Part shown: positions 2,379 through 46,211 of the stretch, piece by piece
Layout of the letters: each line of letters begins with the position of its first letter
How positions within the stretch are numbered: the first letter of the stretch is position 1
DNA from: a virus
Length of the DNA stretch: 64,000 bases
IMG/VR virus record: IMGVR_UViG_3300031949_000022
Location: 1 to 64,000 of that record
Direction: 5' to 3' (one strand)
The notes under the pieces: model-generated
What the model was told of the DNA's origin: nothing
Databases searched by the model: none
What the model saw: only the letters and a program-made list of their open reading frames with translations
Program-made: the position numbers and the translations under genes

Positions 2379-3262
2379 CGATTGACCCGCACGTATTCGC
2401 CGCGCTTGACCGTGCTCTTGCGCTTCAACGCCGGGTTCAGGTTGATGAGAGCTCCGACGCTCATCTTGTGGAAAGCCGCGAGCGCAATGATGCCGATCTC
2501 CATTTGGTTGATGACGATCTTCGTCGGGTTCGGCGGAGTCGTGGCCGTCTCGTTGAGACGGTACGCGGCCACGGCTAGGCGGCGCGCGTTGCGCCGTAGC
2601 GGTTGGTTGTCAGGGTTCTTGAGCGAGTCGACTCGCTTGTCGAGCTGCTCCATCTGCGAGGACAGGCGCGCCATGTTGGCGATGACCCTCGACTTCGCTA
2701 CCTCGAGCTGGTCACCGATCCCGCGGATGGCGTCGAAAAGCGGAAGCGTTGGCTCGGGAGGCTCCTCCTGCTTGTAGTCCACCTTCGTGGACTCGCGGTC
2801 GAAGAATCCGGCCATTCCCTGGGCGCCCTCAAGCGACTCGATCGCCAGGACCGCGGGAGCCTCCGCCGCTTCCTCCGGCGCGTAGACGAACTCGACCTGG
2901 ACGTCGACACCGTCCCTCCGGTTGACATCCAGCGTCTCGGACAGGCTCGCGCACTTGGCCTGCAACTCCCCGTGCACCGGGTCCACCAGCGTCCCCACGG
3001 AGCGGTCCAGGCACGCTCGCAGGAAGTCGGGATAGGCGGTCGTGAACCAGTTGGTCCATGGGCCCTTCGCCAGGTCCTCACGGGCAGGAATCGTGAACGA
3101 GTACGTCGGGTTCTCGCGCCCCAGGCTGTCGATCAGCTCATCATCCCGGAAGACGTACCGGTGGCGCGCAAACTCCTGCCGGAAGCCGTACTGCCGTCCA
3201 GCGCACGGGAAGCCGAGTCCCCGCCATGAGGCGATGGTCAGTCTGGCGAGAATGTCGGTCAT
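2375..3262 (-). CDS. Mu-like DNA circulation protein (gpN-like tail protein)
   Basis: N-terminus ASWRGLGFPCAGRQYGFRQEFARHRYVFRDDELIDSLGRENPTYSF matches the DNA_circ_N pattern (aSfRGvpF..GRR..He.P.rD....DLGr); follows tape measure as in Mu. Confidence 0.7.
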   Translation of the reverse strand: MTDILARLTIASWRGLGFPCAGRQYGFRQEFARHRYVFRDDELIDSLGRENPTYSFTIPAREDLAKGPWTNWFTTAYPDFLRACLDRSVGTLVDPVHGELQAKCASLSETLDVNRRDGVDVQVEFVYAPEEAAEAPAVLAIESLEGAQGMAGFFDRESTKVDYKQEEPPEPTLPLFDAIRGIGDQLEVAKSRVIANMARLSSQMEQLDKRVDSLKNPDNQPLRRNARRLAVAAYRLNETATTPPNPTKIVINQMEIGIIALAAFHKMSVGALINLNPALKRKSTVKRGEYVRVNR

Positions 3263-26431: not shown

Positions 26432-26611
26432 TCATGGTTCAGGCTGTTTTCTTGTCAGCGTGACGGTGGCCCTAAGCACTTCGGTCATGTCTGGCGTTCC
26501 GGTGAACTCGACTTGCACGTGCCAGAACCCCTTGTTGTTGCGCTTCCTCTTCTGCAGCACGTAGTACGCGAGGGCTTCCTGGATCTGGCTCTTCGTCAGC
26601 TTGACCTTCAT
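26432..26611 (-). CDS. hypothetical 59-aa basic protein
   Basis: Not in ORF track; CCGGAGGTATCCATG context identical to the RBS context of ORF 26894..27205; MKVKLTKSQIQEALAYYVLQKRKRNNKGFWHVQVEF.. Confidence 0.5.
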   Translation of the reverse strand: MKVKLTKSQIQEALAYYVLQKRKRNNKGFWHVQVEFTGTPDMTEVLRATVTLTRKQPEP

Positions 26612-26630: not shown

Positions 26631-26897
26631 CTATGCCCTGCGTCTCGAATTCAACCTGACTGTGCCGTAGCCGTAGCCGTCGCCGTCGCCGTAGCCGTCG
26701 CCGCAGCCGTAGCCGTCGCCGCAGCCGGAGCCGTCGCCGCAGCCGGAGCCGTAGCCGCAGCCGGAGCCGTCGCCGCAGCCGTAGCCGTAGCCGTCGCCGC
26801 AGCCGGAGCCGTAGCCGGAGCCGTAGCCGTCGCCGTAGCCGGAGCCGGAGCCGTCGCCGCAGCCGGAGCCGTAGCCGGAGCCTACGGGGAGCATCAT
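26631..26897 (-). CDS. 88-aa Gly-X dipeptide repeat protein (X = Tyr/Ser/Asp/Cys)
   Basis: ATG 26897 overlaps upstream stop (ATGA); MMLPV-(GX)36-GTVRLNSRRRA; the N-terminal part of the 156-aa track ORF overlaps the upstream gene and is discounted. Confidence 0.6.
   Translation of the reverse strand: MMLPVGSGYGSGCGDGSGSGYGDGYGSGYGSGCGDGYGYGCGDGSGCGYGSGCGDGSGCGDGYGCGDGYGDGDGYGYGTVRLNSRRRA
26667..26882. repeat. imperfect hexanucleotide array (GCCGNN)n, about 36 units
   Basis: Plus strand reads GCCGTA/GCCGTC/GCCGCA/GCCGGA units with recurring GCAGCCGGAGCCGTCGCC blocks. Confidence 0.9.
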
Positions 26898-27205
26898 TTC
26901 AGCCCCCACTGTTCCGGGACAGGAATCGTGAAGATCTCTGCCCCGTCGGGAATGTCCACGTCTGAGATAGGCCTGATATCCGCTTGCGATGGATCTTCGA
27001 TGACCGTCGAAAAACCGACTGACTTCCATCCGAAGATCCACACTGCGCGAGACAGATAGATGCGCCCATCCTTGCGAATGACGTCGCCAGCGAAGAGCCA
27101 TCCTCGGTCCACGACCACTACAGCCCTGTTTCCGTTGAGCTTGCTGCGGGTGTACTCAATGCCGTCAACTGTGATGTTTTCTTTCATGGTGTTTTCTCCT
27201 GTCAT
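26894..27205 (-). CDS. hypothetical 103-aa protein
   Basis: Start moved to ATG 27205 (GGGAGGTATCCATG; ATGA overlap with upstream stop); MTGENTMKENITVDGIEYTRSK.. Confidence 0.55.
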   Translation of the reverse strand: MTGENTMKENITVDGIEYTRSKLNGNRAVVVVDRGWLFAGDVIRKDGRIYLSRAVWIFGWKSVGFSTVIEDPSQADIRPISDVDIPDGAEIFTIPVPEQWGLK

Positions 27206-27429
27206 GGATACCTCCCGTCGATCGCATCGTTGTCCACGTCCTGGTAGTTCGGCGGGGCGTCGATGCTTTGGCCAGACTCTCCCATCGGCCTCCGGAGCCT
27301 CTCCCGCTCCCGAACGTTTCGCGTGATCTTCACAGCAGCCGGCCTCAAGATCGGATCGAGCCTCAGGATCGCCAAGCGGTCCGGTCCCTGGATGTCGTCC
27401 GGGATCTCGTAGTCGCTGCCACCAGCCAT
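27202..27429 (-). CDS. hypothetical 75-aa protein
   Basis: ATG 27429 shares 1 nt with stop of the DnaC-like gene (TGATG). Confidence 0.5.
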   Translation of the reverse strand: MAGGSDYEIPDDIQGPDRLAILRLDPILRPAAVKITRNVRERERLRRPMGESGQSIDAPPNYQDVDNDAIDGRYP

Positions 27430-28505
27430 CAACGCACCTCCACCACTGGCCCACGCTTCCCTCGGCACTCAACGAACCGGCGCACGGTGGCGTCGCCGTA
27501 TTCCGCGTCGATCGCTTCGAGCGTCCACCCCGTCGTGATCATCGTCGGCATTCCGTAGTTGTAGCGGTGACGAATCAGAGCACGCAGTGCGGGTCTGCCG
27601 ACGGCTGGTTCCCAGCCCAGGTCATCGAGCGCAACCCAACGTGCGCGCTTCGCGCGGTAGAGTGCGTTGCCGGTCTCGCTTACCCAGTCTCCGTGGCGTT
27701 CCGGTCGCGTCCCCTCGTCGGCCAGGCCATAGGCGATGCAGCCGGCAATGTCCTCCGCTGACACGAAGAGCAACCCCTTGAGCCGCGGGCGCGACACACA
27801 GTGTTGTGAGCGCGCCTGCTTGTCCGCCTGCTCAAGGGCCTCACGTTGGAACGACTGGTACATGATCTCGACGATCGCAAGCGATTTTCCCGTGCCGGTA
27901 TTGCCAGCGAGCACTCCGCCAATCGACACGTCTGCTGACTCGGCCACCGCGCGCAGTCGCGGGTCCATGAGACGCAACCGTTCTTCGCTCGACAGGTCCG
28001 CTGCCGGAGGCAGCGCCTCGCACGCCGAGCGCGTCGCGCGAACGACGGCTTCGTGGAGCTGCACATCCACCAGTGCTCGACGCTCAGCGACCAGTGCTCG
28101 CCAGTTCGTTGAGCGGAGGGCTTCAACCGTCTCACCGCAGAACTGCATATACGACCGCGTGCGATCGGGGCCCCAGTAGACATCGTCACTCGGGCTACCC
28201 GCGACCCAGTCTCTGACTTTGGCCCAGACATTCGACCGGCCGAGCTCGTAGAGCAGGTCCTGCTCAGGCCAGCCGGAGTCAGCTTGCAGACGCCCGAGGA
28301 TCTCCTGGGCCTGCTGGCTTCGATCGGCGGCTTCCATGCGCGCCGCATCCGCTGCGACCGATGCCTCACGCGCTCTCTGCTCGATATCGTCTGCGCGCTG
28401 TGCGCGTTCGCTGGCCACTGTTTCGCGGCGCTCGCGTTGTTCGAGCGTGAGGAGTTTGTCGAGCTCGAGAATTTCTTGTTCCAGGTTGGGCAACTGGTGA
28501 CTCAT
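27429..28505 (-). CDS. AAA+ ATPase, DnaC/IstB-like helicase loader
   Basis: Walker A GNTGTGKS, Walker B RWVALDDLG; follows replication initiator gene. Confidence 0.75.
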   Translation of the reverse strand: MSHQLPNLEQEILELDKLLTLEQRERRETVASERAQRADDIEQRAREASVAADAARMEAADRSQQAQEILGRLQADSGWPEQDLLYELGRSNVWAKVRDWVAGSPSDDVYWGPDRTRSYMQFCGETVEALRSTNWRALVAERRALVDVQLHEAVVRATRSACEALPPAADLSSEERLRLMDPRLRAVAESADVSIGGVLAGNTGTGKSLAIVEIMYQSFQREALEQADKQARSQHCVSRPRLKGLLFVSAEDIAGCIAYGLADEGTRPERHGDWVSETGNALYRAKRARWVALDDLGWEPAVGRPALRALIRHRYNYGMPTMITTGWTLEAIDAEYGDATVRRFVECRGKRGPVVEVR

Positions 28506-29527
28506 TTCGTCTCTGTGCCTGTCGGTGGTGGGGGTTGTTGTTTCTTCATCTCGGCGAGCAGACGGGCGGTGTAGCCGCTGCTAGGCTGGGCCGGACCTCG
28601 ACCGCTGCCAGGGCGGGCGTTCGGGCTCGAAGCCGGCGAGGTACACTTCTGCGGGTCGGTCGCGATGGTGCGTATCGTGGCTTTGTCGCGCCACCAGCTC
28701 CCGGGTGCGTAGACCTTCCGGATGATGCCGACGGCTCGTGTCGCGTCGCCGGCGCACTTGTCGATCAACCGGTGGATCGCTCGCCCGTCGGCGGAGTCAA
28801 ACAGGGGCTTCTCGCCACGGGCTGACTCGAACGCTTCGAAGTATGCGTTGCGGACTGCCAAGAACCCGGTCGTCTCCTCGGTTGGCGACTTGGGTGTCTT
28901 CTGGGTCTTCGGCTTCCCACCACTCTTGGGGGTCGGCGTTTTGGTCTTCGGTCCGGTTTTCGACTTCGAAGCTTCTGGTGACTCGAGTCGAAAATCATCG
29001 CCCCCTGGACTCGCGTCGCTCGTCGACGCGCTAATGCCTACTTCAATGCCTACTTCATGCCTACTTCCGAGCGTTTTTGGCAGCAACTCGGCTGGATTTC
29101 TGATCGCCGTGTCACCGGTCCCTGTCGTAGATGTCACCGGTCCCTGGACACCATGGCACCGGTCACGTGGTGGAACCGGTGACATGGTGGCACCGGTCAC
29201 GTGGTGGAACCGGTGACATGGTGGCACCGGTAACCCGTGACACGATGTCACCAGTGCCGAGACATCGAATTGCCAAGCTAGGCCGTTCTTGGTCGCCGGG
29301 TCGGGGAGAACGCCCGTCTCGACCAACGCCGACACCACGCGTTTCACGGTGCGAGTGCTGAGACCAGTCAACGTCGCCAGTCTCGAGGCCCCGGGCTTGG
29401 GCTTCGGGTAGCGGGTCGACCAGTGGTCGAGAATCGCCAGCAGCACCAGCTTTTCACTGGGCTGAAGAGAGGCCTCAAGTACGGCGCGGCGCGCCGCTCG
29501 TGGAGAGAATTCGGTCACAGACCGCAC
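28502..29527 (-). CDS. replication initiator-like protein with N-terminal winged-helix domain
   Basis: N-terminus EKLVLLAILDHWS..ASRLATLTGLSTRTVKRVVSALVETGVL (wHTH), Lys/Pro/Thr-rich linker, C-terminal domain; contains the ACCGGT repeat array; upstream of loader. Confidence 0.6.
   Translation of the reverse strand: MRSVTEFSPRAARRAVLEASLQPSEKLVLLAILDHWSTRYPKPKPGASRLATLTGLSTRTVKRVVSALVETGVLPDPATKNGLAWQFDVSALVTSCHGLPVPPCHRFHHVTGATMSPVPPRDRCHGVQGPVTSTTGTGDTAIRNPAELLPKTLGSRHEVGIEVGISASTSDASPGGDDFRLESPEASKSKTGPKTKTPTPKSGGKPKTQKTPKSPTEETTGFLAVRNAYFEAFESARGEKPLFDSADGRAIHRLIDKCAGDATRAVGIIRKVYAPGSWWRDKATIRTIATDPQKCTSPASSPNARPGSGRGPAQPSSGYTARLLAEMKKQQPPPPTGTETK
29111..29255. repeat. iteron-like array: 7 ACCGGT cores (plus 1 degenerate) inside the initiator gene; candidate origin
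   Basis: ACCGGT at 29114, 29136, 29158, 29175, 29192, 29209, 29226 (spacing 22,22,17,17,17,17); GTCACCGGTCCCTG x2 and a ~34-bp unit CATGGTGGCACCGGTCACGTGGTGGAACCGGTGA x2.7. Confidence 0.55.
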
Positions 29528-30018
29528 ACCTCCACGTCGCGCAACAACTCAGCCTCTGCCGCCTCGCCACCCGGCCACTCAGGCGAACATGGATCCGGCG
29601 CCGAGCTCGAATTGCTACGACTCTCGAGTAGTAGCTCTCGGCATGCCCCATCCCACTTTCGGTGAAAGGCATGCAGCACGGTCGTGTGGTCCAGCCCAAA
29701 GGCCCTGCCGGTCTCGTTCGAGCTCCAGCCGTACTTCGCTCGGCAGATGGCAATGGCCAGGGCCCGAGCGCGCGCCACGGAACGGTGCTTGTCCCTGCTG
29801 AGCACAGACTCGGGCGGGACTCCGAAAATCTCGCTTGCAGCCAGAATGGCTGGCAGGATGGCGCTCAGCATTCTCGGGTCGCGCGGGGCTGGACGCTTCG
29901 CAGCCTGGAGCTTAGTCGCCCCCCGACGCCGAGCCCCAAGCCTGCCTGGAGGAACGTACAGCGGCAGGCTCTCGACCCTCGGAAGTCCCTGCCACGCGTT
30001 GACAGCTCTAGCGACCAT
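29515..30018 (-). CDS. DnaA domain IV-like helix-turn-helix protein
   Basis: SRDKHRSVARARALAIAICRAKYGWSSNETGRAFGLDHTTVLHAFHRK matches the DnaA C-terminal DNA-binding domain pattern. Confidence 0.65.
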   Translation of the reverse strand: MVARAVNAWQGLPRVESLPLYVPPGRLGARRRGATKLQAAKRPAPRDPRMLSAILPAILAASEIFGVPPESVLSRDKHRSVARARALAIAICRAKYGWSSNETGRAFGLDHTTVLHAFHRKWDGACRELLLESRSNSSSAPDPCSPEWPGGEAAEAELLRDVEVCGL

Positions 30019-45342: not shown

Positions 45343-45603
45343 GTGAACACTCAATCAAGATCGATGACAGTATCCTACTTCGTCGACGACAAAGAGGCGT
45401 TGAACGGCGTAGTTCGCCACGACAAGAATGGACCGTACTCCGTGCTCGAAATTGGCGAGGTGACGTTCTTCGGATTCTCGTCCGACCAGCTCGAAGAACT
45501 CGCGGTCCAGTGCCGACAGACAGCTTCGGCTCTGAGGCGTGCACAGCAGGAGATCCATCGGGACCGCGATGACGCCATGGTTGAGGCGCGAGGTGAGCTG
45601 TGA
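45343..45603 (+). CDS. hypothetical protein (86 aa)
   Basis: GTG 45343 or ATG 45364; follows a 250-bp gap. Confidence 0.5.
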   Translation: MNTQSRSMTVSYFVDDKEALNGVVRHDKNGPYSVLEIGEVTFFGFSSDQLEELAVQCRQTASALRRAQQEIHRDRDDAMVEARGEL

Positions 45604-46211
45604 CCGACCCAATCCTAGCCTGGCATTTCCTCCCTGCCGACCGTCGCCTCGCCAACGGCGACGGACGCCTAGTCACACCAGGATCTCGTCTGACTGTCTA
45701 CGGGTCCATCGTGCTGTGTGAACACGAACTGCACGCAAGCGTCCGAGCAATCGACGCTCTAAGCGTCCGAGCAATCGACGCTCTCCAGTATGCGTCTGGA
45801 CCCATCATCTGCCGGGTCGTCGTCGACGGCGTTGTATCCGGAGACGACCAGATCGCTGGAACGTCACGTCGTTGCCTGTGGCTCGTTGATGGCACTCGAT
45901 TGCTGCGCGAGTTTGCGTGCTGCTGTGCACGCCAAGCGTTGGCGCTAAGCGCCTATCCTGACCCGCGTAGCTTTGCAGCAATCGACGTCGCCGAGCGGTT
46001 CGCTCGCGGCGAAGCTACGAGCGAAGAGCTGTTCGCCGCCAGTGCCGTCGCCAGTGTCGTCGCCAGTGCCGCAGCCTGGGCCGCCACCAGGGCCGACGCC
46101 TGGGCCGCCGCCGGGGCCGCCGCTTGGGACACCGCCGGGGACGCACAGAATACCGAACTCGAGCGTCGGATCAGAGCCGCGCATCGGGCGCAGTGCGGAG
46201 GTGAGCTGTGA
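45600..46211 (+). CDS. conserved hypothetical protein with Ala/Trp-rich C-terminal repeats
   Basis: 203 aa; GTGA overlap; contains an in-frame 24-bp tandem duplication. Confidence 0.55.
   Translation: MTDPILAWHFLPADRRLANGDGRLVTPGSRLTVYGSIVLCEHELHASVRAIDALSVRAIDALQYASGPIICRVVVDGVVSGDDQIAGTSRRCLWLVDGTRLLREFACCCARQALALSAYPDPRSFAAIDVAERFARGEATSEELFAASAVASVVASAAAWAATRADAWAAAGAAAWDTAGDAQNTELERRIRAAHRAQCGGEL
45737..45784 (+). repeat. perfect 24-bp tandem duplication (2 copies)
   Basis: AAGCGTCCGAGCAATCGACGCTCT x2, encoding SVRAIDAL twice. Confidence 0.9.

Follow-up and report, generated by a model that had tools for sequence, protein, structure and literature searches.

A small phage gene encodes a protein made almost entirely of glycine alternating with tyrosine, serine, aspartate or cysteine, and it forms one half of a widespread two-gene unit in which the other half is a protein of about 100 aa predicted to fold as a small beta-barrel. 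The unit occurs in hundreds of uncultured phages and in at least one cultured phage. The window analyzed here is a stretch of 64,000 nucleotides from IMG/VR record IMGVR_UViG_3300031949_000022. The 88-aa product of its repeat gene is MMLPVGSGYGSGCGDGSGSGYGDGYGSGYGSGCGDGYGYGCGDGSGCGYGSGCGDGSGCGDGYGCGDGYGDGDGYGYGTVRLNSRRRA, which reads MMLPV-(Gly-X)36-GTVRLNSRRRA, where X is Tyr (11), Ser (9), Asp (9) or Cys (7). The 36 units are uninterrupted, no basic or aliphatic residue lies inside the array, and the tail is basic. The coordinates of the gene, its parts and its neighbors are collected in Table 1.

Table 1. Features of the Gly-X repeat locus and its surroundings, in window positions.
Feature	Position	Strand	Description
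Gly-X dipeptide-repeat gene	26631-26897	-	88 aa plus stop
Start codon of the repeat gene	26897-26895	-	ATG, overlapping the partner's stop
Leader	26883-26897	-	MMLPV
Gly-X array	26667-26882	-	(GGC-NNC)36, X codons TAC/TCC/GAC/TGC
Tandem repeat reported by TRF	26664-26882		Period 6, 36.5 copies, score 263
Repeated block GCAGCCGGAGCCGTCGCC	26721 and 26757		Two occurrences, 0 expected
C-terminal tail	26634-26666	-	GTVRLNSRRRA
Partner gene	26894-27187	-	97 aa, predicted small beta-barrel (Sm/LSm-like, DUF6948-like)
Stop codon of the partner gene	26896-26894	-	TGA
Likely Shine-Dalgarno sequence (inferred)	26903-26907	-	GGGGG in the partner's terminal Trp-Gly codons, 6 nt before the ATG
Following ORF	26432-26611		59 aa, GGAGG RBS
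Intervening ORF	27202-27429		75 aa
DnaC-like loader	27429-28505
Iteron-like repeats	29033-29231

The observation made in the earlier note, that of a translationally coupled Gly-X ORF on a hexanucleotide array, is correct. Its account of the recurring block and of the RBS-preceded 59-aa ORF also holds, and the array additionally shows a 12/18-nt higher-order register. Two small corrections are required. The gene had been placed just after the DnaC-like loader, whereas the 75-aa ORF and the 97-aa ORF lie between them. In addition, the same frame stays open upstream to 27101, which is incidental.

Comparison with related loci shows that the ORF is a genuine, selected coding gene. All 80 IMG/VR loci retrieved through the upstream 97-aa gene carry a (Gly-X)n ORF directly behind it, with 7 to 72 units. 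In 58 of 60 distinct junctions the start overlaps the partner's stop, and TGGGG(G/A) precedes the start in nearly all loci, although its Shine-Dalgarno role is inferred. A hairpin sequestering this sequence is present in the window but is not general across loci (median z -0.56). The conditions named beforehand in the note as able to refute coding were examined, and the ORF passed them. All 33 length differences between near-identical loci are divisible by 3, only the G-X frame is open in 60 of 60 distinct arrays, and conservation follows G-X rather than the plus-strand Ala/Val frame, because lineages using GGA/GGT or NAT codons keep the same pattern. Copy number does drift in 6-nt steps, as the note had suggested, and sometimes in 3-nt steps. 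However, array lengths come from short-read metagenome assemblies and many contigs break inside the array, so the length polymorphism may be partly an artefact. As the unit is 6 nt and the observed differences are in frame, the array does not have the frame-shifting repeat unit of an on/off contingency locus.

The ends of the protein are also conserved. Leaders of the 60 distinct loci are 4–11 aa long and follow the consensus M-x(0-8)-[FLIM]-[RK/x]-P-[VI], directly followed by the first Gly of the array; one IMG/VR locus, L004, has MIPVG. The tail motif of the family is G-T-[CPVI]-S/x-x-x-R-x-R-R, with examples such as GTCSPHRGRRAQ, GTVRSSKRRRS and GTPSPNRLRRTA, while the sequence labelled P0002 ends GSVRSNKRRRPN. 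This motif is encoded with 5 Ser, 4 Pro and 5 Arg codons. Across the family, X is Tyr 48%, Asp 21%, Asn 15%, Ser 8% (156 of about 1920 X residues), Cys about 1% (18 of about 1920) and Ala 0.4%. The X codons are TAC plus its one-step neighbors, but the transition-derived His and Cys are the rarest, which suggests selection for Tyr, Asp, Asn and Ser. A DGR-type origin of the variable codons was considered and dropped, since the variation is limited to these one-step neighbors and no reverse transcriptase was seen, although not in a formal search.

The partner gene has more than 1090 homologues, falling into 254 clusters at 50% identity, and at least 341 IMG/VR loci. Across 81 loci it is the only gene conserved with the array, the next most common neighbor occurring in 17 loci, and a relative with a 96%-identical loader lacks both genes together. 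The AF2 model of the partner has a pLDDT of 87. The best PDB matches found by Foldseek are archaeal Sm and LSm chains, but the similarity is weak (E 2e-3, TM about 0.5), and the model lacks the N-terminal helix and has an extra N-terminal hairpin. Against BFVD, DUF6948 proteins are matched with E 2.5e-4 and TM 0.58–0.68. In contrast, no Pfam hit was obtained at E<=1 for 24 family members, precomputed Pfam assignments are empty for all 120 listed homologues, and the profile–profile comparison with DUF6948 (PF22253) is not significant (hhalign E 0.057 over 22 columns). The partner has invariant Trp, Phe and Arg residues (W30, F32, W50, W54, F59, W94, R21, R28, R72). A search of 254 representative clusters for a fused partner–array protein found none, only tandem duplications of the barrel, which hint at self-association and are consistent with oligomerisation.

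The association was also examined from other directions. Genes that are true members of DUF6948 have a Gly-X protein downstream in 13 of 13 cases checked, including 4 chosen blind to the array. Conversely, 87 of 99 arrays found by DNA pattern alone have such a partner upstream, while 12 have no recognized partner. The cultured Eggerthella phage PMBT5 carries the pair as gp37/gp38. This pair was reached only through a BFVD structural hit: blastn and tblastn searches with the region and with the partner or DUF6948 proteins against 50,697 cultured phage records found no relative for the window's partner or for three DUF6948 proteins.

Neither gene of the pair has an informative annotation. Searches of Pfam, PHROGs, NCBIfam and PADLOC with both genes and with the flanking domains of related proteins gave only low-complexity hits, such as TrAA12 and keratin head, and PDB sequence searches with profiles of the partner and of the 'FGAC' domain gave no hit. 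Literature searches on DUF6948 and on GYGDGYG or glycine-tyrosine phage repeats found no paper on such proteins, and the PMBT5 genome paper does not mention gp37/gp38. The note's statement that no characterised phage protein of this kind was known agrees with the databases and literature searched. Nevertheless, the pair is abundant, with about 2000 DUF6948 proteins in metagenomes in addition to the partner homologues, and at least 120 array-bearing viral contigs, a lower bound. It is conserved far better than any of its neighbors, and its repeat protein is sometimes called in the wrong frame in public records. A protein of strictly alternating Gly and Tyr/Asp/Asn/Ser with fast-changing length is a natural experiment in low-complexity sequence function in bacteria and their viruses, and its presence in a cultured phage makes the question directly accessible to genetics, imaging and biochemistry.

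The sequence comparisons establish that the ORF is a selected protein-coding gene of a large phage (Gly-X)n family (X = Tyr >> Asp, Asn, Ser), encoded behind and translationally coupled to a gene of the 97-aa family or of DUF6948, and that the pair is a self-contained module moving between otherwise unrelated phage genomes, usually among replication, recombination and nucleotide-metabolism genes. The earlier note did not recognize this module. Everything concerning its function is inferred, including expression level, disorder, self-association, partner binding, oligomerisation, nucleic-acid binding and phase separation. The preferred reading, with a probability of about 0.35–0.4, is that the array is an intrinsically disordered, highly expressed, multivalent polymer with Tyr as stickers and Gly/Ser/Asn/Asp as spacers, which would self-associate and/or offer many repeated binding sites to the aromatic-rich, probably oligomeric barrel. 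Together the two proteins would build a condensate or gel, or a cross-beta filament. The Arg-rich tail would give Tyr–Arg contacts or nucleic-acid binding, and coupled translation would fix the ratio of the two proteins. The assembly would act early in infection on DNA/RNA metabolism or on a host factor.

Several results are consistent with this reading. In an AF2 model of an artificial partner–repeat fusion, the array has a pLDDT of about 30 while the barrel stays at 75–90, although low confidence does not prove disorder. C-ending optimal codons (GGC 95% in arrays against 44% in the neighboring gene) suggest high expression, the mRNA is less structured than shuffled controls (z = +3.4), and the synthetic peptides GYGYGYG, NYNYNYN and SYSYSYS self-assemble into amyloid fibrils (PMC8163036). 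However, no experimental or structural evidence supports self-assembly, partner binding or any target. The fusion model gave no confident docking of leader or tail on the barrel (tail pLDDT about 49), and Asp-rich variants such as the window's copy, with a net charge of about -5, would disfavor simple coacervation. A bolder form of this reading remains possible but doubtful. In this form, tailed phages of many lineages would carry a minimal two-protein condensate kit, consisting of the Sm-like/DUF6948-like barrel and a co-translated polymer of tunable valency, that forms a membraneless compartment or gel organizing phage DNA/RNA metabolism or trapping a host factor. Repeat number would evolve rapidly to tune the material properties, and the system would be a prokaryotic-virus counterpart of eukaryotic Tyr/Arg-driven low-complexity assemblies.

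The functional interpretation offered in the note is only partly supported: of its three proposals, a silk-like or condensate-forming peptide remains the most plausible class, whereas the RiPP and the acidic or thiol/metal-binding decoy ideas are not supported as family features. Among the alternatives, the one that survives best, although unlikely, is a passive flexible spacer, in which the array is only an entropic linker or bristle holding the conserved ends, or the flanking globular domains of DUF6948-type proteins, at a distance from each other or from the barrel, with the function residing in the ends. The conserved ends, the flanking domains, the free variation in length and the lack of a predicted fold agree with this view. 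However, a linker does not need about 48% Tyr or strict Gly at every second position, and the composition appears selected for Y/D/N/S and against H/C/F. Moreover, the array is the only feature shared by all architectures, and PMBT5 gp38 lacks the basic tail.

Slightly less likely is a decoy or mimic aimed at a host or defence factor, for example a competitive substrate or sponge for a Tyr/Ser/Asp-modifying enzyme, a protease or a protein that binds Gly/Tyr-rich tails, with the barrel as chaperone or adaptor. The module sits among early accessory genes, is mobile and has a hypervariable array, and the window's copy is acidic and Cys-rich. However, charge and Cys content are not conserved, and many arrays have almost no Asp or Cys, as in the IMG/VR loci L021 (S17 Y4 D1) and L007 (Y15 N11 D1). 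There is also no PADLOC hit, and the partner is unusually conserved (55–70% identity across unrelated phages), unlike typical fast-evolving anti-defence genes.

A translation-level device is improbable. In this view, the run of GGC plus NAC codons (Tyr/Asp/Asn/His, the queuosine-tRNA set) would act as a sensor or sink for Gly-tRNA(GCC) and Q-tRNAs, or for anticodon nucleases, and would control downstream expression, with a dispensable peptide. GGC makes up 95% of Gly codons even in phages of 43–50% GC, NAC makes up 85–87% of Tyr/Asp/Asn codons against about 50% in the adjacent gene, and 85% of X residues are NAY-coded. However, downstream genes differ between loci, some lineages use GGA/GGT or NAT throughout, and leader and tail are conserved at the protein level. 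The bias is also explained by optimal-codon selection plus homogenisation by slippage, and the NAY set is simply the first-position neighbors of TAC. A microcin B17-like RiPP precursor that is modified and exported is very unlikely. The window's copy has Ser and Cys between glycines and PMBT5 gp38 has GCG units, but no YcaO/cyclodehydratase, dehydrogenase, protease or transporter is conserved nearby, the window's neighbors have no such Pfam or PHROG hit, and no NCBIfam RiPP model is hit. In addition, Cys and Ser are minor across the family, leaders, at 4–11 aa, are shorter than the recognizable leader of about 15–30 aa that marks this class, arrays reach 72 units, and many of the proteins carry globular domains. 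Least likely of all is a non-coding DNA or RNA repeat, such as iterons, a G-rich structure or a slippage-prone spacer, with an incidental ORF, since, despite the perfectly periodic hexamer array with near-invariant GGC near the replication genes, the frame is kept, start–stop coupling and synonymous changes indicate a protein, Rfam gives no hit, the RNA is less folded than shuffled controls, and the window's real iteron-like repeats lie elsewhere.

The closest known systems are the DUF6948 phage proteins and the uncharacterised Gly-X proteins downstream of them. The layout is the same: a gene of about 90–130 aa for a beta-barrel, whose stop overlaps the start of a (Gly-X)n protein, in early/recombination regions. 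However, DUF6948-type repeat proteins usually carry an N-terminal 'FGAC' domain or a C-terminal globular domain, whereas the window's type has only a 5-aa leader and a basic tail. The microcin B17 precursor McbA is likewise a small Gly/Ser/Cys-rich peptide, but it needs McbBCD and a 26-aa leader, none of which is present here. In the eukaryotic Sm proteins SmD1/D3/B an Sm-fold barrel is associated with a Gly-Arg dipeptide repeat, but in cis and with Arg as X, while mammalian high-Gly/Tyr keratin-associated proteins are Gly/Tyr/Cys/Ser-rich like the window's copy but do not strictly alternate and are structural matrix proteins; there is no evidence of homology. Collagen-like or polyglycine-II repeats have Gly at every third residue, while the period here is 2 residues. 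Silk fibroin (GAGAGS)n repeats share Gly at every second residue and a hexanucleotide/hexapeptide-type array prone to length change, but in silk X is the small Ala or Ser, allowing tight sheet packing, whereas here X is mostly bulky Tyr or polar Asp/Asn; silk is also secreted, very large and eukaryotic.

The FUS-family prion-like domains, with their [G/S]Y[G/S] motifs, and the Tyr–Arg grammar of phase separation (PMC10888811) offer an analogy in mode of action rather than homology. The window's array has 11 G-Y-G motifs in a polar, aliphatic-free segment predicted to be disordered, with an Arg-rich segment in the same molecule. In contrast to FUS, the period is strictly 2, Gln is absent, and the protein is a stand-alone bacterial-virus product of 30–160 aa with a separate barrel partner, for which phase separation is only inferred. 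The synthetic prion-inspired heptapeptides mentioned above have the same binary X-Tyr pattern and a predicted glycine steric zipper for GYGYGYG (PMC8163036). They are only 7 residues long, whereas the natural arrays mix Tyr, Asp, Asn and Ser, are 14–144 residues long and often carry negative charge.

The observation made in the earlier note, of a short ORF built from uninterrupted Gly-X dipeptides, holds. The minus-strand ORF translates to MMLPV-(G-X)36-GTVRLNSRRRA, 88 aa, in which X is Tyr 11, Ser 9, Asp 9 and Cys 7 (counted on locus L002, which is the window's own contig). Tandem Repeats Finder reports a 6-nt period with 36.5 copies and a score of 263. Every Gly codon is GGC and every X codon is NNC, the 18-nt block pointed out in the earlier note occurs twice against 0 expected, and the array has a 12/18-nt higher-order register. 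The ATG overlaps the TGA of a 97-aa ORF, referred to below as the partner, and a GGGGG run inside the last Trp-Gly codons of that ORF, a putative SD, lies 6 nt upstream of the ATG. In the window, the GGGGGC of this putative SD can pair with GCUCCCC, the Leu-Pro codons of the leader, enclosing the start codon. Across 58 loci, however, this hairpin is not consistently better than shuffled sequence (median z -0.56; 15 loci below -1.5). The features of the window and of the related loci are collected in the table.

Coordinates of the repeat gene, its neighbours and further features of the window and of related loci
Feature	Sequence	Coordinates	Strand	Remarks
Gly-X repeat ORF	window	26897->26631	minus	88 aa
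Tandem repeat, 6-nt period	window	26664-26882
ATG of the repeat ORF	window	26897-26895	minus
TGA of the 97-aa ORF	window	26896-26894	minus
97-aa partner ORF	window	26894-27187	minus
Potential hairpin at the putative SD	window	26886-26909
DnaA_C-type HTH protein	window	29515-30018	minus
HTH_36 replication initiator	window	28502-29527	minus
DnaC-like loader	window	27429-28505	minus	phrog_50
75-aa acidic ORF	window	27202-27429	minus	MAGGSDYEIPDD...; start overlaps the loader's stop
59-aa ORF	window	26432-26611	minus
453-aa ORF	window		minus
Iteron-like repeats	window	29033-29231		inside the replication-initiator ORF
AATGCCTACTTC x3	window	29033-29067
Perfect 24-nt direct repeat x2	window	45737-45784
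12/24-nt repeat	window	46034-46144		CGCCGCCAGGGC x7.5
ORF containing the 12/24-nt repeat	window	45600-46211		Ala/Trp-rich low-complexity stretch (AAAWAATRADAWAAAGAAAW)
Contig without the pair	L001	1-1221
Region with the array and the annotated frame	L096 (MW202566.1)	2742-3105
79-aa G-X ORF	L096 (MW202566.1)	2742-2981		directly after the partner homologue
(Val-Met)n frame annotated in GenBank	L096 (MW202566.1)	2815-3105
G-X ORF ending early and five further arrays	L050	4306-5044

The presence of tail sheath, portal, large terminase, methyltransferase and exonuclease genes shows that the window is a myovirus-type phage genome. It comes from a 72-kb metagenome contig and has no close relative among 50,697 deposited phage genomes. 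A gene of the same length as the 75-aa ORF is called in the same position in loci L003 and L004. The iteron-like repeats comprise a 34-nt unit x2.3 at 100% match (17-nt x4.6), built from TCACCGGT/ACCGGTGA palindromes, in addition to the threefold AATGCCTACTTC. They probably represent the phage origin embedded in its initiator gene. Elsewhere in the window there are two further repeats, and the second of these, with the 12/24-nt unit, lies within an ORF, where it encodes an Ala/Trp-rich low-complexity stretch.

The 97-aa protein has more than 1,090 homologues in the metagenome protein collection, and 254 clusters at 50% identity. Scanning IMG/VR with its alignment confirmed 341 loci, of which 80 were fetched, and in all 80 a (Gly-X)n ORF lies directly downstream on the same strand. 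In 72 of these, the ORF was found by a simple scan for at least 8 units. Of the other 8, which were also resolved, one has a short array (L025, 7 units), two have interrupted arrays, four contigs end inside the array, and L084 has a 10-unit array that was listed in the scan. No such array occurs anywhere else in those ~500 kb, apart from extra copies in L050. In this locus the G-X ORF ends early (...GYGDGRGRAL) and five further G-X arrays follow in two frames, several ending GRGRGR, which may be tandem extra copies or a frameshifted or misassembled array. An 82%-identical relative (L004) ends in MIPVGYGEGYGDG with the same ATGA overlap. In 58 of 60 distinct junctions the start codon overlaps the partner's stop, as TGATG/TAATG in 40, ATGA in 15, and longer overlaps in 3.

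The repeat ORF is a real, selected protein gene. Only the G-X frame is open across all 60 distinct arrays, while the other frames are open in 20-45 of them. Among locus pairs whose partner genes are at least 90% identical in DNA, 33 differ in repeat-ORF length; all 33 differences are divisible by 3, and 25 are divisible by 6. This amounts to about ten independent events, and differences reach 210 nt even when the partner gene is 100% identical. Because these are short-read assemblies and many contigs stop inside the array (L003, L004, L042, L056, L059, L069-L072, L080, L083), the exact lengths remain provisional. The conserved C-terminal motif G-T-[C/P]-S-P-[H/N]-R-x-R-R is written with five Ser, four Pro and five Arg codons. 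Several lineages use GGA (L011, L043), GGT (L040, L064, and the AT-rich MW202566.1) or NAT codons (L060, L047, L080, L081), yet keep the same G-X pattern. The earlier note had named such comparisons as possible refutations, and the coding reading passes all of them.

Across the family, the leader is M-x(0-8)-[F/L/I/M]-[R/K/x]-P-[V/I]-G, the array has 7-72 G-X units, and the tail is G-T-x-S-x-x-R-x-R-R. The window's GTVRLNSRRRA fits this tail, as do the repeat proteins P0002 (GSVRSNKRRRPN) and P0011. Over 64 distinct arrays, X is Tyr 914, Asp 400, Asn 282, Ser 156, Thr 38 (mostly the terminal G-T), Phe 33, His 32 and Cys 18, with everything else at 13 or fewer. These residues are TAC and its six one-step non-synonymous neighbours. 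His and Cys, which arise from TAC by transitions, are nevertheless the rarest, and this is read, by inference, as selection for Tyr plus small polar residues. Seven of the 18 Cys belong to the window's copy, so the Cys richness is lineage-specific; gp38 of Eggerthella phage PMBT5 is another Cys-containing case. Acidity is not conserved either, as locus L021 is S17 Y4 D1.

Codon use in the arrays is extreme. In a comparison of the arrays in L005-L084 with adjacent genes, GGC is 95% of Gly codons, against 44% in the adjacent gene of the same loci, and TAC/GAC/AAC are 85-87%, against 46-56%. This holds even in phages of 43-50% GC. The simplest reading is optimal-codon selection in an ORF that would be highly expressed, combined with homogenisation by slippage. 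In addition, 85% of X residues are NAY-coded (Tyr, Asp, Asn, His), which are the codons read by queuosine-modified tRNAs. A link to this codon set is not supported by anything else, and the pattern probably reflects optimal-codon selection plus the mutational neighbourhood of TAC.

The partner is the only gene conserved with the array across 81 loci, and the next most frequent neighbour occurs in 17 loci. Neighbours include ThyX-like, ribonucleotide-reductase-like and MazG-like proteins, recognised by motif. A contig (L001) whose loader C-terminus is 96% identical to the window's has an unrelated 88-aa ORF (MKIRVTIDIQ...) in place of both genes, followed by a homologue of the 59-aa ORF. The pair is therefore gained and lost as a unit. 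The partner models confidently, with pLDDT 87, as a small beta-barrel with one helix. Its best PDB matches are archaeal Sm and LSm proteins, but these are weak (E 2e-3, TM ~0.5). In BFVD it matches an uncultured-phage orthologue, proteins of Rheinheimera phage barba and Eggerthella phage PMBT5, and several DUF6948 proteins (E 2.5e-4). It does not hit any Pfam model, and hhalign against four DUF6948 proteins is not significant (E 0.057). Some homologues (P0156, P0157, P0276) carry two tandem copies of the predicted barrel in one polypeptide, which hints that the domain works as a dimer or higher oligomer.

The same arrangement extends to DUF6948. The proteins found with the repeat peptide as query are (Gly-X)n arrays fused to various small domains. 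Each one whose context could be read lies immediately downstream of either a Pfam DUF6948 gene, with overlapping start (P0001, P0017, P0029, P0033, P0019), or a member of the 97-aa family (P0005). Four DUF6948 loci found from the DUF6948 side (L091-L094) also have the array downstream, as do four DUF6948 genes chosen only for the length of their contigs from 1,985 hits, which makes 13 of 13. In the reverse direction, a 27-nt array pattern retrieved more than 120 IMG/VR loci. Of the 99 with enough upstream DNA, 45 have a DUF6948 gene upstream, 40 have a 97-aa-family gene, 2 have a divergent PMBT5-like partner, and 12 have no recognised partner. The median gap between the partner's stop and the array is 35 nt. 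Among the arrays without a recognised partner (such as loci L133, L190, L122, L208, L157), some follow a domain with a GFHFC motif and precede an INGK..VDG..PT domain, while others are MKYPKG-(GX)n-GAYPYPLVTR peptides. No natural fusion of barrel and array was seen among the partner homologues and their clusters.

The pair also occurs in cultured and deposited phages. In Eggerthella phage PMBT5 (MH626557), gp37 (94 aa, ...VIADRGWIFEG...) is followed 3 nt later by gp38 (108 aa, MANYGYGNGYGNGYG...GCGYGDGYG...). Both are annotated 'hypothetical' and lie between SSB and DnaD/DnaI, and the genome paper does not discuss them. In MW202566.1 (locus L096), the partner homologue is followed by a G-X ORF that matches the family, whereas GenBank annotates the overlapping (Val-Met)n frame. 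Such arrays are probably mis-called elsewhere too.

Taken together, the analysis establishes, with a probability of about 0.9, a highly constrained alternation of Gly with Tyr or a small polar residue, free variation in valency, and obligate co-encoding and coupling with a conserved, aromatic-rich predicted barrel, apart from the 12 of 99 pattern-retrieved arrays with no recognised partner. It also establishes a location in early/DNA-metabolism modules and the absence of a confident fold for the array (pLDDT ~30 in a fusion model whose barrel stays at 75-90). The mechanism, in contrast, is inferred, and its probability is only about 0.35-0.4. In this view, the array would be a disordered multivalent polymer whose Tyr residues mediate self-association and/or repeated binding to the barrel. 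The Arg-rich tail would contribute Tyr-Arg or nucleic-acid contacts, giving a higher-order assembly. Support from the literature is by analogy only: the synthetic peptides GYGYGYG, NYNYNYN and SYSYSYS form amyloid fibrils (PMC8163036).

Among the alternatives, a passive linker survives best, although it is unlikely, and a decoy or mimic for a host factor is slightly less likely still. A translation/tRNA-level device is very unlikely. A RiPP precursor and, last of all, a non-coding repeat may be practically set aside. The interpretation put forward in the earlier note is supported in part: its coding reading stands, while the RiPP precursor it suggested ranks near the bottom.

Neither annotation nor a paper was found for the pair in the databases and literature searched. 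As a conserved two-gene system, it therefore appears to be undescribed. The repeat protein is not a member of the collagen-like, RiPP or contingency-locus classes. The partner is DUF6948-like in predicted fold and gene context, but not by the Pfam model. By analogy, the repeat protein would work most like Tyr-rich low-complexity, prion-like sequences and binary X-Tyr amyloid peptides, and it shares the every-second-Gly rule with silk, although it is not a member of any of these families.
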